A stretch of 64,000 nt of DNA, from sequence record OR525698.1; one strand, given 5' to 3'. The notes under the pieces are model-generated. The model did not search any database. It had not been told where the DNA came from and worked only from the letters and a program-made list of their open reading frames with translations. Source of the DNA: Escherichia phage vB-Eco-KMB43. The position numbers and the translations under genes are program-made. Shown here one piece after another: positions 131 through 29,837 of this stretch (its first letter is position 1; each line of letters opens with the position of its first letter).

Positions 131-138
131 TATAAATA
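131..138 (+). promoter_or_regulatory. T4-type late promoter TATAAATA upstream of gene 24
   Basis: Exact TATAAATA about 38 nt upstream of the gene 24 ATG. Confidence 0.6.
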
Positions 139-175: not shown

Positions 176-1417
176 ATGACTCATATTTTTACTGAACTGT
201 TGCGGGAATCTACTTCCTCAGTAGCTAACCAGACAGCGCGACCGCAACTATTATCATTAACTCGCGCGGTAAACAACCTGATTTTCTCTGATCTGGTAGC
301 AATCCAGCCAACGGATCAACCAGTATCTGCATTGTACGGCCTACGTTATCTTAATCATGATGGTCAGATGACTTTCCGAACTGCTGCAACCTACGGTGGT
401 GCGGTTGGTGATCGCACAGAGATTGAAGAGTTTTCAAAAGAAAAATCTTATGACGAAGGCGCACTATTCAAATCAGGCGATGTTGTATACGAAGTTGTGA
501 CCGCTGGTACAGTCGGTGAAGATGCCGAAACTCCAGAAGCTGCGATCTTTAAAGGCGTAATGACAAACAAAATTCGTTTCTATAGCGATTGTGCATCGGT
601 AGAATACTTTGAAGATAAAAACACCGAAATTGCGTCTACCTCTATGCAGTTTGACAAGTGGCAAGTTAATGTAGGTTCTCGTAAACTGAAAACCTCGTTC
701 ACCACTGAATTAATGCAGGATCTTGAGGCAAGCCAAATCAACTCTGAAAACTCTGTAATTGATCTTCTGGCTACTGTTGCTTCAGAAGAGATCAACAAAG
801 ATATTATTCAGAAGTTGATCACTGTATCATCTCGCTATAAAATTAAAGGGATCACCCCTGATGGCGTACTTTCTCTCGTTAGCGTTCAGGATGCACCAAC
901 ACAAGCGCGTGAACTTTACCGCTATGCTTGCGAGATGAGCAATCAAATGTTGCGGACTTCCTCCTTTGCTGGTACATACGTTTTGGCGTCTTCTCGCGTG
1001 GTTGGCCTCCTGCAATCTTCCGGTTGGATGGAAGAAACCGACAATGCTCTAAGCGAAGGTCGTCTACGTTGCGGTCTGGAAGTGTACGCAGACACGACAA
1101 CACCTTTCGATTATATGCTCGTTGGTTGTAAGCACATGATCGGTGATATGGAGAGTGTCGGTTCTCTGTTCTACTCCCCATATACAGAAGCCGACGGCGC
1201 TGGCGCGTATAAGAGCGTAATTGACCCTAATAGCTTCCAGCATCATGTAGCTATTATGAATCGTTATTCACTCTCTGTCAACCCATATACATCAAAAGTT
1301 GATCAGGAAGAACACCAGGTCATCAAGGGTGACGATTGGGGTAAAATGGCTGGACGTTCAGAAATGTCCTACATTTTAGGAATCGAACTGCCACCGCTTG
1401 AGATTGACAACGCTTAA
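176..1417 (+). CDS. 24: head vertex protein gp24
   Basis: Translation from ATG 176 (MTHIFTELLRESTSS...) aligns along its length with remembered T4 gp24; AGGA RBS upstream; ORF track start at 110 is an upstream in-frame extension. Confidence 0.9.
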   Translation: MTHIFTELLRESTSSVANQTARPQLLSLTRAVNNLIFSDLVAIQPTDQPVSALYGLRYLNHDGQMTFRTAATYGGAVGDRTEIEEFSKEKSYDEGALFKSGDVVYEVVTAGTVGEDAETPEAAIFKGVMTNKIRFYSDCASVEYFEDKNTEIASTSMQFDKWQVNVGSRKLKTSFTTELMQDLEASQINSENSVIDLLATVASEEINKDIIQKLITVSSRYKIKGITPDGVLSLVSVQDAPTQARELYRYACEMSNQMLRTSSFAGTYVLASSRVVGLLQSSGWMEETDNALSEGRLRCGLEVYADTTTPFDYMLVGCKHMIGDMESVGSLFYSPYTEADGAGAYKSVIDPNSFQHHVAIMNRYSLSVNPYTSKVDQEEHQVIKGDDWGKMAGRSEMSYILGIELPPLEIDNA

Positions 1418-2005
1418 CTAAATATCTAACCAAGACAAGTCAGATCCGCCCAAGATTTTTTCGACGGCGGATCTATTTTCTTGATGATATAAGTTAAAAC
1501 ATGGTATCCCATGTCTACGGGCAACATAAACAGCAATTCTAGTTCCTCCCGAAACGATTCCATTAACTTCTTTCGCCCAAAATATCACACAATCTACCGG
1601 ATCATCAAGTGTCTCACCTAAGACTTGAGCAACATTTCTAGAAAACAGATTTTGCATGTATAACGGTATAGAACGAGGATTATCATAAACATGTTCTAAT
1701 TCATCCATCGCCAGATTTTTTTGTTCTAAGGTTTGCCATGCAATCACATCATGACCGTTATGCTTGTGGTCATAAAACTTCCAATTTGGAATGAAAATTT
1801 TTCTATAATCTGGATCGTAATACTTCATGAAAGCATTGTCCATACCGTAAGCCCCTCCAGAATGCGCTACAACGCGATTTTCTGACAATACCCTCCCAAT
1901 GGTACTAGCCATTATCAAAATGTCGCTAGGCGCTTTTCTAGAGCCGATTAAAGCACATCTACGAAGTGGTTTTACTCCAAATAGATCTTGTAACTGGTCA
2001 AACAT
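1418..2005 (-). CDS. SLOG/DprA(Smf)-like Rossmann-fold protein
   Basis: 195 aa; segment LIGSRKAPSDILIMASTIGRVLSENRVVAHSGGAYGMDNAF resembles the DprA/SLOG GxR...SGGARGID nucleotide-binding signature; GGAGGAA RBS upstream of ATG. Confidence 0.45.
   Translation of the reverse strand: MFDQLQDLFGVKPLRRCALIGSRKAPSDILIMASTIGRVLSENRVVAHSGGAYGMDNAFMKYYDPDYRKIFIPNWKFYDHKHNGHDVIAWQTLEQKNLAMDELEHVYDNPRSIPLYMQNLFSRNVAQVLGETLDDPVDCVIFWAKEVNGIVSGGTRIAVYVARRHGIPCFNLYHQENRSAVEKILGGSDLSWLDI
1442..1479 (+). terminator. candidate rho-independent terminator after gene 24
   Basis: Inverted repeat AGATCCGCC...GGCGGATCT followed by ATTTTCTT; loop is long (15 nt), so moderate confidence. Confidence 0.45.
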
Positions 2006-2157
2006 AATATTTCCTCCATAGAAAGCAATATCATACTACAAGTTAATAACAAATACAAGTATCCGCGTAGCGGAAGCGAGCACAGCGAGCATTAAAAACA
2101 CTTCCAGTAATTGATTAATAAATGTTCGAAACAAATTTTTATTATTTTATAAGATAA

Positions 2158-2327: not shown

Positions 2328-2390
2328 AATCAAACAGTATTAATATTGTGCACATGTAAACTAAAATTATGTTAATAATAGATACAAAAA

Positions 2391-2410
2391 AGCCGCCCAG
2401 AAGGACGGCT
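2391..2410 (-). terminator. candidate terminator downstream of ORF 2419-2856
   Basis: AGCCGCCCAGAAGGACGGCT hairpin flanked by an A-run on the plus strand (T-run on the transcribed minus strand). Confidence 0.5.
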
Positions 2411-2902: not shown

Positions 2903-3178
2903 TTAGGACATTGCCCGTTTGAATGCGTCCATTATAACAGTGTTATTTGGCTTGTCAACACGTTTTTGAACTTTATTTTTAAATTTTTTGTTGATGTGGT
3001 GTTTACGATAAACAACCTTTTCACGGCTGGCGTAAGCCTCGCGTGCATCTTTTACCATCAACCATTCCTTAGCCGCATCTTGTCCGCTGATCCCGCCAAT
3101 CTTCTTAGCAATATCAACAAAATTAAGACCGTGGTCTTCGCGTAGCATGTAAACCATTAACGCTGTTTTCTTGTCCAT
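2903..3178 (-). CDS. hypothetical protein (about 91 aa)
   Basis: ORF 2903-3286 in track; likely start is the ATG at 3176-3178, which overlaps the stop of the upstream ORF as ATGA (translational coupling). Confidence 0.5.
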   Translation of the reverse strand: MDKKTALMVYMLREDHGLNFVDIAKKIGGISGQDAAKEWLMVKDAREAYASREKVVYRKHHINKKFKNKVQKRVDKPNNTVIMDAFKRAMS

Positions 3179-3375
3179 CACTTCGCCCCATTGACGATTA
3201 ACAGGATAGTGATCAGTACCGGAAACTGGATCATGACAGTACCAAAAAACCGGATAAACGCATTTTCCGACTTCCACACATGACATGCGACTAGCTGATA
3301 GACCATTGTTGCAACCAAAGCCAGAAAATACATCTCGATTGGTGCTTCTTTGATCAATCGTACAACCTCATTCAT
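3178..3375 (-). CDS. small hydrophobic/membrane protein (65 aa)
   Basis: ORF with two hydrophobic stretches (FLALVATMVYQLVA, VMIQFPVLITILLIV). Confidence 0.5.
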   Translation of the reverse strand: MNEVVRLIKEAPIEMYFLALVATMVYQLVACHVWKSENAFIRFFGTVMIQFPVLITILLIVNGAK

Positions 3376-3538
3376 ACTTCACCTCATACATTCATAAACA
3401 CAACAACGAATAGGACAGTAACAGTTATTAAAGCCATTTTCAACCCCATATTCATAATATTTTCCTCATAGGGTAACGCCCTGTCGATGCGTGCCATTAT
3501 AGGCATCTAAATCGCTCTGTCAAGCACAAAAACAAAAA

Positions 3539-3558
3539 AGCCACCCCGAAGGATGGCT
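3539..3558 (-). terminator. candidate terminator downstream of hoc
   Basis: AGCCACCCCGAAGGATGGCT hairpin preceded on the plus strand by an A-run. Confidence 0.55.
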
Positions 3559-3569
3559 GATAGATTTCA

Positions 3570-4784
3570 TTAAGCAGGATGCGTTTCACGAATGCGTAGA
3601 ACTCGCTCTAACGTCTCTCGGTCCAGTTTATGTAACTTTTTGGACTGATACATGAAACCATTGCGAGATTCCATGCAAGTGCAATCACTATATTTTTCTT
3701 CCGCTGCCGCGATTGTCTCCAGATCTTTGGCGTACTTGCTGGTTGAATAAACTTCTCGGTTACGCCACTCTAACCCAGCCTCATTGAATTTAACAATCTC
3801 GTCAAATACCCACCATCCAATGTAGATAAATGAAGTTTTGCGCCACGGGATCGGGTGTACGTAACGAAACATTTTAACAACTTCCATTGAACATTTTCTA
3901 CTTGTACTTGTTGCAACTTCTACTGTTTCATCTTCGATCTGTTGATATAGTTTAGCAACACACCAGAATTTGGCTGTGTCATCGTAAGTAGCACTCTCTT
4001 TGAACAGATGACCGTCTGGCATGATAGAAAATCCTTCCTGTGCTTCGCCGACCTCACTACCGATCAGAGTCGGTGACAGTTGCCCTTCGCGCTGCAAATA
4101 CCAGTTATATTTGATCGTCAATTCAGGCATACCGCTAGAATCGCCTACAATGTTCTCTGACACAACATAATTAAGTAAGATCTCATTACCTAGTGCCACG
4201 GTCTTTGATTCCACCACATCCTGATCTACGTTCATTGTTGCCAGCATGATTTTAGTCGATGCGCTAGCGGCTGAATCTTCCGACTCACCCCACACTTTTA
4301 CAGTATACACGCCGTTTTTATCTGCTGTAAATTTTTGGATCGTAATATCCTGTGTTGTGTCTATAACGTCTTCGCCCTTACTCCAACTATAATGTAGTTC
4401 ATAGTTGTCTGCTGGAGTATTCCCACCAGAAAATTTTACTGTTGCATGTAATTCTACGTCTGTTTGTGATGATACGTAGAAATGCTGCGGTTCGGTGATA
4501 TTTACGATTAATTCAGCTTCTTCCATGAGGAAAACTTCAGATTCTACTGATTCCGTCGTATCGGTATCTTGTACCGTTACTTTATAGCTACCCGCATTTT
4601 CACTTGTTGCACCTACTACAGATAGCGTAGCTGTGCTATTTTCATGTGGTTGGTCGTCTTTTGTCCATGTATATGTCAAATTGCTGGGTAATGGTTCGTC
4701 ACCCGCTACAGTCGCCGTTAAGGTGAAACCATCTCCAGCAAGAAAACATCTTTTGTCAGATTTAATTGATACTGTGAAAGTCAT
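3570..4784 (-). CDS. hoc: Hoc, highly immunogenic outer capsid decoration protein
   Basis: Starts MTFTV as T4 Hoc; C-terminal YVHPIPWRKTSFIYIGWWVFDEIVK...ESRNG matches the T4 Hoc capsid-binding region (YVHPLPHRSSAYIWCGWWVMDEIQK...ESRNG). Confidence 0.85.
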   Translation of the reverse strand: MTFTVSIKSDKRCFLAGDGFTLTATVAGDEPLPSNLTYTWTKDDQPHENSTATLSVVGATSENAGSYKVTVQDTDTTESVESEVFLMEEAELIVNITEPQHFYVSSQTDVELHATVKFSGGNTPADNYELHYSWSKGEDVIDTTQDITIQKFTADKNGVYTVKVWGESEDSAASASTKIMLATMNVDQDVVESKTVALGNEILLNYVVSENIVGDSSGMPELTIKYNWYLQREGQLSPTLIGSEVGEAQEGFSIMPDGHLFKESATYDDTAKFWCVAKLYQQIEDETVEVATSTSRKCSMEVVKMFRYVHPIPWRKTSFIYIGWWVFDEIVKFNEAGLEWRNREVYSTSKYAKDLETIAAAEEKYSDCTCMESRNGFMYQSKKLHKLDRETLERVLRIRETHPA

Positions 4785-5801: not shown

Positions 5802-5809
5802 TATAAATA
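5802..5809 (+). promoter_or_regulatory. T4-type late promoter TATAAATA upstream of uvsW
   Basis: Exact TATAAATA about 37 nt upstream of the uvsW ATG. Confidence 0.55.
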
Positions 5810-27882: not shown

Positions 27883-29377
27883 CGAATACCTCTTTTACTG
27901 TATTTGCAGTGGTCTTGTCGTAGCGAATACGTTTGATGATTGGGAGAAATAAAGAGAACTCCGGTTCATCTTCTTTACGTGATTTGCTGCGAATGTACCC
28001 GTTGCATGTCATCTCAATGACTTTTCCAATCAGGTTATGACGGTCAGCCCATAACATTTCTCGGTCGAGTTCATTTCGACGATCGAACGGAATTACACGT
28101 TCAGTACCATCATCACCTTTTTCGGTTGTAGTGTCGGTTAATCCCGATCCGGTGTTAGTCATCATTCGTCCGCACGCACTACGGACAGTAAAACCGCCTA
28201 CCTTATTGGGGTCTTTACTATGCGGATATACATCAACAATTTCCGCGTCGAAGTCAATCACTTCTTTAAATTTAACCTGATCTTTACTACGGCGATCTTC
28301 AAATACACCATGTAAATTTTTAAGGATAATACCTTCTAAGCCCATGTTGACATAACGATGATATACTTCGCGAGCTTCATCGATATTGTTAACTACAGTG
28401 TTTTCTATGATCTGAACACGAGGATCGTTAAGTTCTTCAACAATCTGTTTTAGTTCTTCGAATCGATCTTTATATTGCTTCGTTGCTTTCTCGTTTCCGT
28501 AATACACATCACGGTCGATAACATCCCAGACAGTGTAAACAATACATTGGGCTTCTTCTTTTGGAATAGTTCCTTTAAGTGATTTGTTGAGGATACCATT
28601 TCCGGTCTGACGATCTGCAACAACGGATTCTTTCACTGCTTCCGCTACTGGCGTTAATGGCATTTCCTCTTCTTCAAATATCCATGACAGAGTACCATCA
28701 TAAACGCTTTCAACGAAGTTCTGCGCTGGTGTTTGCGAAAGGGTAGGCATATATACCAATTCGCCATCTAGAACAATTCCACGGCCTCGTAGACGCTCTA
28801 AAACCGCAAACAAATCATCAAGCCCTTGATAGGTATTACCTGAGCGGGTATAGATTGCTAATGTTTCCCCGTCAATATCAGCCATACCACGAGCGCCATC
28901 GCTTTTAAGTTGTGCATACGCCGGATACTTGATATTAGCAATAGTCTTATCAGAACATGACGATGCAAGGTGGCACGGTTGCTGGGGGATCAGTTTCTTC
29001 CATACCTTGTTTGCAGTGGTAGCGGAACAGCCGCATTCCAGATCACGATTCAGGACCATCATTGCAACTTTAGCATCATCCTCTGACAAGCAAGTCAGAG
29101 TATCGGTAACTAGCTGTAATGCTGCATTACCAGTTACTTGACGCGTGGCAAGTTTATTTTTAAAGACCTGTAATGCACCGGATAAAGACAATACAGACGA
29201 ATAGCGAGACGGTTTATCGTATTTCTTTACGCCAAACGTAACCTGTTTGCAATATGCCAGATAAAAGCATTCTTTCAGCGTTTCATTGCTCGCGGATTCT
29301 TTCAGAATCTTTTCTTTCAGCGATGTTTTGTCTGTTGCTGCAAGCTGATTAATGATATTAAGAATTGACATTTTCAC
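27875..29377 (-). CDS. 30: ATP-dependent DNA ligase gp30
   Basis: 500 aa; FAQLKSDGARG (KxDG adenylation site), LDGELVY, EGIILKN, and overall collinearity with T4 DNA ligase. Confidence 0.9.
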   Translation of the reverse strand: MKMSILNIINQLAATDKTSLKEKILKESASNETLKECFYLAYCKQVTFGVKKYDKPSRYSSVLSLSGALQVFKNKLATRQVTGNAALQLVTDTLTCLSEDDAKVAMMVLNRDLECGCSATTANKVWKKLIPQQPCHLASSCSDKTIANIKYPAYAQLKSDGARGMADIDGETLAIYTRSGNTYQGLDDLFAVLERLRGRGIVLDGELVYMPTLSQTPAQNFVESVYDGTLSWIFEEEEMPLTPVAEAVKESVVADRQTGNGILNKSLKGTIPKEEAQCIVYTVWDVIDRDVYYGNEKATKQYKDRFEELKQIVEELNDPRVQIIENTVVNNIDEAREVYHRYVNMGLEGIILKNLHGVFEDRRSKDQVKFKEVIDFDAEIVDVYPHSKDPNKVGGFTVRSACGRMMTNTGSGLTDTTTEKGDDGTERVIPFDRRNELDREMLWADRHNLIGKVIEMTCNGYIRSKSRKEDEPEFSLFLPIIKRIRYDKTTANTVKEVFDV

Positions 29378-29837
29378 CTCGTTTTGTTAAACGTTCACGA
29401 ATATCATTGAGGATACTACAAAATTCCGATTCAGTCAATATAGTCTTTAACGGATCAGTTCCACCTATGCTATGACGTAATTTCTTATTTCCGGTAGCAA
29501 GTAATGCTTTACAAAATTCTGGGTTATTCCGTGCCATCGTAACAAATGCCAGATGTACCAGTCTGTAATAATGCTCACTCATTCGATGAATCGGGCGACC
29601 CTGAAAATATAACATGTGATTCTCAATCTTTTCAGTTCTTCCGGTTCTTTTTGCTTTGCCACCGTGCATCAAAAAGATTTCTCTTTGTCTCTGAGGGTTC
29701 TTAAATCTTAGCCCCTGTAAAAATCCTTCTGTGCTGTTAATATCGCAGCCAAATAAACGGAATGGTCTTTTATTGAAATTACTCAATTCACCCGATGGAT
29801 AAGGTCCACCCGCATAGATATCAATTTCAGAAGTCAT
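29358..29837 (-). CDS. NADAR (DUF1768, YbiA-like) family protein
   Basis: IYAGGPYPSGELSNFNKRPFRLFGCDINSTEGFLQGLRF aligns with the E. coli YbiA core (INFYSTSDDYGDFSNFAAWPIKVDGKTWPTSEHYFQAQKF). Confidence 0.6.
   Translation of the reverse strand: MTSEIDIYAGGPYPSGELSNFNKRPFRLFGCDINSTEGFLQGLRFKNPQRQREIFLMHGGKAKRTGRTEKIENHMLYFQGRPIHRMSEHYYRLVHLAFVTMARNNPEFCKALLATGNKKLRHSIGGTDPLKTILTESEFCSILNDIRERLTKRGENVNS

Follow-up and report, generated by a model that had tools for sequence, protein, structure and literature searches.

Next to the capsid vertex gene 24, the DNA analysed here (a 64,000-nucleotide stretch of Escherichia phage vB-Eco-KMB43, record OR525698.1; hereafter the window) encodes a 195-amino-acid (aa) protein that, as judged from profile comparisons and a predicted structure, is a stand-alone, minimal, single-domain relative of the Rossmann domain of DprA. 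We tentatively read this SLOG protein as a helper in repair or counter-defence that binds single-stranded nucleic acid; this is the best of the readings weighed below, and we give it somewhat less than an even chance.

Comparison with phage records identifies the window as part of an RB49-type T4-like phage of the genus Krischvirus: its first 6 kb matched 58 phage records from this genus with at least 90% nucleotide identity (54 of them at 95–99%). The SLOG protein itself is present in 58 Krischvirus genomes at 95% aa identity or higher and is 100% identical to the protein of Krischvirus RB49. Its coding sequence, stop codon included, occupies 1418..2005 on the minus strand and begins with ATG (at 2005), with a Shine–Dalgarno GGAGG read directly from the sequence 7 nt 5' of the start codon (2013..2017, minus strand). 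Compared with a relative of 87% aa identity (locus L008), the gene is under purifying selection (dN/dS 0.11, dS 0.75). Given this ratio, the conservation of the locus in Krischvirus and the recovery by tblastn of relatives in 1354 of the ~50,700 phage records searched, from many host genera, the ORF is a genuine conserved gene and no chance ORF. An earlier note on this DNA had described an ORF of 195 aa with the signature GSR…HSGGAYGMD, lying convergent with gene 24. The signature is present as claimed (G21-S22-R23 and H48-S49-G50-G51-A52-Y53-G54-M55-D56 in the translation), and the two genes do converge, the stop codon of gene 24 (176..1417, plus strand; PHROG 138, E = 5e-114, and annotation in relatives) abutting that of the SLOG gene.

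The protein matched PHROG 768, named 'DprA-like DNA recombination-mediator protein', with E = 1.2e-60 and 205 bits (residues 15–187 on profile positions 4–181 of 191), and identical proteins in public records already carry this label. Matches to the bacterial DprA profiles were below threshold, at 22.3 bits for Pfam DprA PF02481 (gathering cut-off 29.6; residues 15–60 only) and 14.4 bits for TIGR00732 (cut-off 191), and a sub-threshold DprA match was common to 28 of 32 family members. Direct sequence searches of the PDB returned DprA only marginally, over ~50 residues (E = 0.7 with the single sequence and 3e-4 with a profile), so profile–profile comparison was needed; for this we reconstructed the sequences of the Rossmann domains of E. 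coli Smf, of DprA from R. palustris, S. pneumoniae and H. pylori, and of ShosA. The phage family aligned to this set by hhalign with a probability of 91.2% (E = 1e-6; 144 columns, query residues 14–173), and its motifs fell in register with those of DprA: GSR with G[ST]R, SGGAxGxD with SGLAxGID, RN with RNR, GGT with SG[ST], and GIPxxN with GRxVFA. It is this match, with the motifs in register, that points to a relative of the DprA Rossmann domain.

AlphaFold2, given 32 homologues, predicted with confidence (pLDDT 93.9, pTM 0.89) a three-layer alpha/beta Rossmannoid fold whose five parallel strands match solved SLOG structures. The 195 aa form one domain flanked only by short terminal helices, with no accessory domains. 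In BFVD, the SLOG protein grouped with phage 'DprA-like' proteins (TM 0.6–0.8), at a distance from YAcAr/DUF2493 (TM about 0.45), the second major SLOG family of viruses. The earlier interpretation as a SLOG/DprA-like nucleotide-binding protein is thus supported by the PHROG 768 match, the hhalign comparison with DprA and the AlphaFold2 fold, nucleotide binding being predicted.

To gauge the extent of the family, we searched all of 1.84 billion cluster representatives (metagenomic protein clusters at 50% identity) exhaustively with HMMER and recovered 4319 relatives at E ≤ 1e-3 and 2731 at E ≤ 1e-10, mostly stand-alone proteins of 170–200 aa. A scan of bacterial genomes with the family alignment gave three loci only, two of them contigs of metagenome-assembled genomes (MAGs). 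The family was also found on 23 plasmids, 12 of which are conjugative.

Conservation, counted over 227 distinct family members (the number of aligned residues varies by column), was near absolute around one pocket. G21, R23, D56, R123, G153, G154 and T155 are essentially invariant, and N124, Q127, N171, P26, P73 and A158 are more than 92% conserved. The loop after strand 1 carries G21-S22-R23 (codons at 1937..1945, minus strand; R23 in 222/223), and the loop after strand 2 carries the SLOG/DprA signature SGGAxGxD, aligned to SGLAxGID of DprA (S49 to D56, 1838..1861, minus strand; D56 in 226/226, G50 in 224/224 and G54 in 222/224). The loops after strands 4 and 5 contribute RNxxQ (R123-N124-V-A-Q127, 1625..1639, minus strand; R123 in 226/226, N124 and Q127 each in 219 of 227), GGTxxA (G153-G154-T155-R-I-A158, 1532..1549, minus strand; GGT in 225/225, A158 in 217/225), which corresponds to SG[ST] of DprA, and N171. 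Since all of these sit at the C-terminal ends of strands, they are predicted to ring a single pocket. Three arginines bind ssDNA in H. pylori DprA, R52, R143 and R170, equivalent to R139, R234 and R261 of ShosA, where R139 and R234 are essential for antitoxin function and R261 is dispensable (PMC12961424). They map to R23, R123 and position 160 of the SLOG protein; at position 160, RB49 has Y, and ~40% of members have a basic residue.

Enzymes of the LOG family share the motif PGGxGTxxE, in which the Glu is catalytic. Where LOG (cytokinin riboside 5'-monophosphate phosphoribohydrolase) has this motif, the phage family has GGTxxA: the segment reads S-G-G-T-R-I-A in the SLOG protein, with A158 at the position of the catalytic Glu. 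This substitution excludes an N-glycosidase mechanism of the LOG type, and the Pfam LOG family gave no match to the SLOG protein; we therefore rejected a LOG-type hydrolase. Net charge proved uninformative about DNA binding: at pI 6.4 the RB49 protein is mildly acidic, the family median is ~8–8.8, and true DprAs themselves span pI 5.8–9.2.

DprA/Smf (PF02481, TIGR00732) is the bacterial ssDNA-binding, RecA-loading protein of natural transformation. The phage protein, although it scores under the Pfam and TIGRFAM cut-offs, is homologous to DprA across the whole Rossmann domain, but it lacks both the SAM domain and the C-terminal DML1/winged-helix domain. The two also differ between strand 3 and the RN helix, where the phage family has its own conserved P..F motif, and the family-specific invariants P26, P73, Q127 and N171 are absent from DprA. 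DprA is encoded in competence regulons, the phage protein by lytic phages. The anti-phage systems ShosTA and PsyrTA have DprA-like antitoxins, ShosA and PsyrA; unlike these, the SLOG protein is stand-alone and phage-encoded and has neither a SAM domain nor the C-terminal helix alpha-14. The PADLOC profiles of ShosA and PsyrA matched residues 15–61 only (E = 4e-5 and 3.5e-4), and no PRTase or helicase toxin gene lies beside the SLOG gene, which is flanked by gene 24 on one side and non-coding DNA on the other. ThsA, the type I Thoeris sensor of 3'cADPR, carries a SLOG domain that resembles the phage protein less closely in structure than DprA does, and no SIR2 or other effector is fused to the phage protein. 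DprA was reportedly placed in a 'YpsA-like' clade by Burroughs and colleagues in 2015.

Fusion proteins offer a view of the company the domain keeps. SLOG–NADAR fusions comprised three proteins of ~330 aa and two of ~1480 aa that also contain YAcAr and LDcluster4 SLOG domains, and the SLOG domain was further fused to DUF4326 and to a complete RecJ (DHH-DHHA1-OB). It is internal in giant viral proteins of the polyvalent type, together with an AlkB-like 2OG-Fe(II) oxygenase or with DUF7831 and DUF4326 (L078, 3051–12221, 3056 aa; L034, 414–10631, 3405 aa; L070, 5643–9983, 1446 aa; L026, 5319–9128, 1269 aa); most of their length has no Pfam match. A SLOG–Macro fusion is found on sphingomonad plasmids, for example Sphingosinicella plasmid p1 (L087, 5040–6071). 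On a Novosphingobium conjugative plasmid, the SLOG gene (L088, 5007–5519) lies near a gene for an SOS-response-associated peptidase (SRAP). Within the window, a stand-alone NADAR of the gp30.3/AdfN type is encoded at 29358–29837 on the minus strand (Pfam Phage_30_3, E = 1e-38); some of the SLOG-fused NADAR domains in other viruses gave weak Phage_30_3 matches too. NADAR enzymes strip ADP-ribose from guanine in ssDNA, T4 gp30.3 (AdfN) neutralises DarTG1, and DarG-type Macro acts on ADP-ribosylated ssDNA. The fusion partners RecJ, AlkB-like, NADAR and Macro all act on single-stranded nucleic acid, and because NADAR and DarG-type Macro work on ADP-ribosylated ssDNA, such fusions are no longer specific to soluble ligands. 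The same NADAR, Macro and DUF4326 fusions appear in the viral SLOG surveys of Iyer, Burroughs, Anantharaman and Aravind (Viruses 2021, 2022), to which the present analysis adds the structural split from YAcAr/DUF2493, a linkage to RNA ligase 2 (Rnl2), and the RecJ and AlkB-like fusions.

To describe gene context, we took 82 loci from IMG/VR and GenBank, which fall into 60 groups at 80% identity, and sorted the genes around them into clusters. The commonest same-strand neighbour of the SLOG gene was Rnl2 (Pfam RNA_ligase and T4_Rnl2_C). In 12 of 13 loci it immediately preceded the SLOG gene, its stop codon in most cases overlapping the SLOG start codon (gaps of -22 to +9), and gene 24 lay convergent downstream of the pair. 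The linkage was present in 10 of the 60 groups, lacking in the other 50 and confined to enterobacterial T4-like phages; we found no description of it in the literature searched. Examples are Klebsiella phage JD18 (L003; Rnl2 at 2991–3998, SLOG at 3998–4546) and phage Matisse, where the pair occupies a different genomic locus (L002; 2953–3972 and 4067–4543), and further pairs occur in L010–L017, L037 and L049. This arrangement indicates that the SLOG gene is translationally coupled to Rnl2 in related T4-like phages. Other recurrent neighbours were a GapR-like DNA-binding protein and a Dda-like helicase (six groups each), and contexts were heterogeneous overall. NADAR was rejected as a conserved neighbour, being adjacent to the SLOG gene in just one of about 80 loci.

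The SLOG gene of the window has the locus and the orientation to gene 24 seen in JD18 and its relatives, but rnlB is absent: we found no Rnl2 ORF in the window and detected no rnlB remnant in the spacer at 2006–2418. A complete Krischvirus genome encoding the identical SLOG protein likewise had no Rnl2 by tblastn (best E = 0.067; T4 control 6e-149). An obligate partnership with Rnl2 is thereby rejected, and since Krischvirus keeps the SLOG gene without Rnl2, the two proteins are mutually dispensable. T4 has rnlB, 24.2 and 24.3 between gene 24 and hoc, so the earlier note was right to place rnlB and small ORFs at this locus in T4. From these gene orders, the ancestral arrangement in enterobacterial T4-like phages seems to have been rnlB–SLOG convergent with gene 24, of which T4 seems to have retained rnlB alone and Krischvirus the SLOG gene alone. 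In MW748999 (phage Skers) and MT341500 (phage EBPL), a gene in this place is labelled 'RNA ligase' or 'putative RNA ligase'; as Krischvirus lacks Rnl2, the T4 name rnlB was probably carried over to the SLOG gene in error, on the strength of position.

The 3' end of the SLOG gene appears to serve gene 24 as well. A hairpin followed by ATTTTCTT on the plus strand (1442..1482), a candidate intrinsic terminator of late gene 24, lies within the last ~60 nt of the SLOG ORF and has a GC-rich stem of 9 bp (1442–1450/1466–1474). The 81-nt hairpin region folds at -25.4 kcal/mol (z = -5.9), and none of 200 shuffles was as stable, which bears out the suggestion in the earlier note that the SLOG gene overlaps a terminator hairpin of gene 24. 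In L008 both stem arms are identical, whereas the loop and many synonymous sites have changed, and this pattern fits a functional gene 24 terminator embedded in coding sequence. A consensus terminator scan did not pick up the hairpin because its loop exceeds 8 nt. Upstream of gene 24, an exact T4-type late promoter motif, TATAAATA, lies ~38 nt from the gene (131–138, plus strand), and a second exact copy lies ~22 nt 5' of a uvsW-like helicase ORF (5802–5809, plus strand); the window contains six copies, a total not above chance, so for these two sites it is the placement alone that is suggestive.

The spacer upstream of the SLOG gene (2006–2418) comprises ~410 nt of non-coding DNA. Its minus strand contains no T4-type late promoter, and the gene is therefore probably of the early or middle expression class. 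A consensus scan gave no convincing sigma-70 promoter for the SLOG gene; a weak candidate read from the sequence, TTGTAT-17-TATGAT (2030..2058, minus strand), fell below the scan threshold and was not listed. At the far end of the spacer, a terminator-like hairpin with an 8-bp stem (six GC pairs) and a TTTTTT tail (2385..2410, minus strand) ends the upstream gene for a 145-aa protein and would set its transcription unit apart from the SLOG gene. The spacer also holds a direct repeat of 77 nt with 71% identity (2112–2188 and 2260–2336), which has the conserved core TTAAATTATGATCAAAACGAAG on the minus strand and of which each copy starts a tiny ORF (MIKTK...); these repeats are possibly regulatory or promoter elements, or duplicated gene-start remnants. 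A 32-aa hydrophobic ORF with a TTG start, MFRTFINQLLEVFLMLAVLASATRILVFVINL (2036–2134, minus strand), overlaps the weak sigma-70-like candidate described above. It is an annotated CDS in relatives and had no PHROG match, and we consider it doubtful as a true gene.

In the reading we prefer, a helper that binds single-stranded nucleic acid, R23 and R123 would hold a nucleotide of the strand, as in DprA and ShosA, and the likeliest target would be ssDNA exposed in intermediates of phage replication, recombination or repair. Because it has no LOG-type catalytic residue, the SLOG protein would be a binding or targeting factor and not a hydrolase. It may mark or protect the ssDNA and so aid the enzymes that process lesions there, namely the ADP-ribose-removing NADAR and Macro, AlkB-type oxidases and RecJ-type nucleases that are fused to it in other viruses and plasmids. 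RB49 encodes its gp30.3/AdfN-type NADAR as a protein of its own, and the SLOG protein does not rely on Rnl2. Literature searches found no experimental work on phage DprA-like or SLOG proteins. Several observations count against such a helper: the third DprA arginine (H. pylori R170) is not conserved, the DprA SAM and C-terminal domains are absent, gp32, UvsX and UvsY are already present in Krischvirus, gene contexts are heterogeneous, and the RB49 protein is mildly acidic. The strict conservation of a single small pocket, together with the invariants P26, P73, Q127 and N171 that are missing from DprA, would suit a specific small ligand or an enzyme equally, and Iyer et al. (2022) took the fusions with NADAR, Macro and DUF4326 to mean that soluble derivatives of ADP-ribose are processed. 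We think it unlikely that stand-alone phage DprA-type SLOG proteins are, more broadly, a widespread and unrecognised counter-defence acting on ssDNA. In one version, the SLOG protein would recruit or assist an AdfN-type NADAR or Macro in taking host-inflicted ADP-ribose off phage ssDNA, as an anti-DarTG factor; in the other, it would stand in for the labile antitoxins ShosA and PsyrA, which counteract their toxins with no physical contact.

The main alternative, though a doubtful one, is that the protein senses, sequesters or processes soluble NAD+/ADP-ribose-derived immune signals, such as cADPR isomers, and so blunts Thoeris-like defences. A role of viral SLOG domains against such signals was predicted by Iyer et al. 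(2022), who cited the Macro, NADAR and DUF4326 fusions, and a very tight, family-specific pocket suits a small ligand just as well. However, the nearest relative by sequence and structure is DprA and not the SLOG domain of ThsA or YpsA, the LOG catalytic Glu is absent (A158 in 217/225), the fusions have become less specific now that NADAR and DarG-type Macro are known on ADP-ribosylated ssDNA, and only one of about 80 loci has an adjacent NADAR gene. Homology to the DprA Rossmann domain could instead mark a true recombination mediator that loads UvsX or host RecA on ssDNA as DprA does in transformation. In S. pneumoniae DprA, this domain bears the ssDNA, RecA and dimer contacts. ShosA binds RecA as well, and for the DprA homologues of phages Iyer et al. 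(2021) proposed a role as additional ssDNA-binding proteins. We nevertheless regard a mediator as decidedly unlikely: Krischvirus has its own mediator, UvsY, along with UvsX and gp32, T4 thrives without a SLOG gene, and the RecA contacts of ShosA (K200 and R206) come after strand 3, where the phage segment has its own P..F motif and falls in a low-confidence part of the hhalign alignment.

ShosA neutralises ShosT by binding ssDNA, dimerising and binding RecA, but does not bind the toxin, and a phage-encoded surrogate antitoxin for ShosTA or PsyrTA could replace the labile host antitoxin during infection and avert abortive infection. Such a role is very unlikely, as the PADLOC matches cover shared SLOG motifs only, the SAM domain on which ShosA depends for its stability is missing, no toxin partner is nearby, and the family is far wider than the known ShosTA and PsyrTA hosts. 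Least probable of all is an accessory factor of Rnl2 in RNA repair, for instance one holding broken RNA ends. Rnl2 does lie directly upstream in 12 of 13 loci (10 of 60 groups), and the pair is kept together elsewhere in Matisse, but Krischvirus has the identical SLOG protein in a complete genome without Rnl2, T4 has Rnl2 without a SLOG gene, and the linkage, lacking in 50 of 60 groups and seen in enterobacterial T4-like phages only, may be inherited synteny.

As annotation, the finding is ordinary, since PHROG 768 and the Aravind-group surveys already cover the family and public records label identical proteins 'DprA-like'; for the genome, the existing 'DprA-like' label is confirmed, and 'recombination mediator' is an unproven name. 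Two incompatible predictions for the family are in print, an ssDNA binder and a processor of ADP-ribose-derived immune signals, and it was after both that NADAR and Macro were shown to repair ssDNA ADP-ribosylation and to act as phage anti-DarTG factors. Because of this activity on ADP-ribosylated ssDNA, the NADAR, Macro, RecJ and AlkB fusions can be re-read as an ssDNA-lesion enzyme plus an ssDNA-binding module, a proposal that is testable. RB49 and other Krischvirus members, tractable E. coli phages with a SLOG gene and a separate AdfN-like NADAR, offer a convenient system in which to test it.
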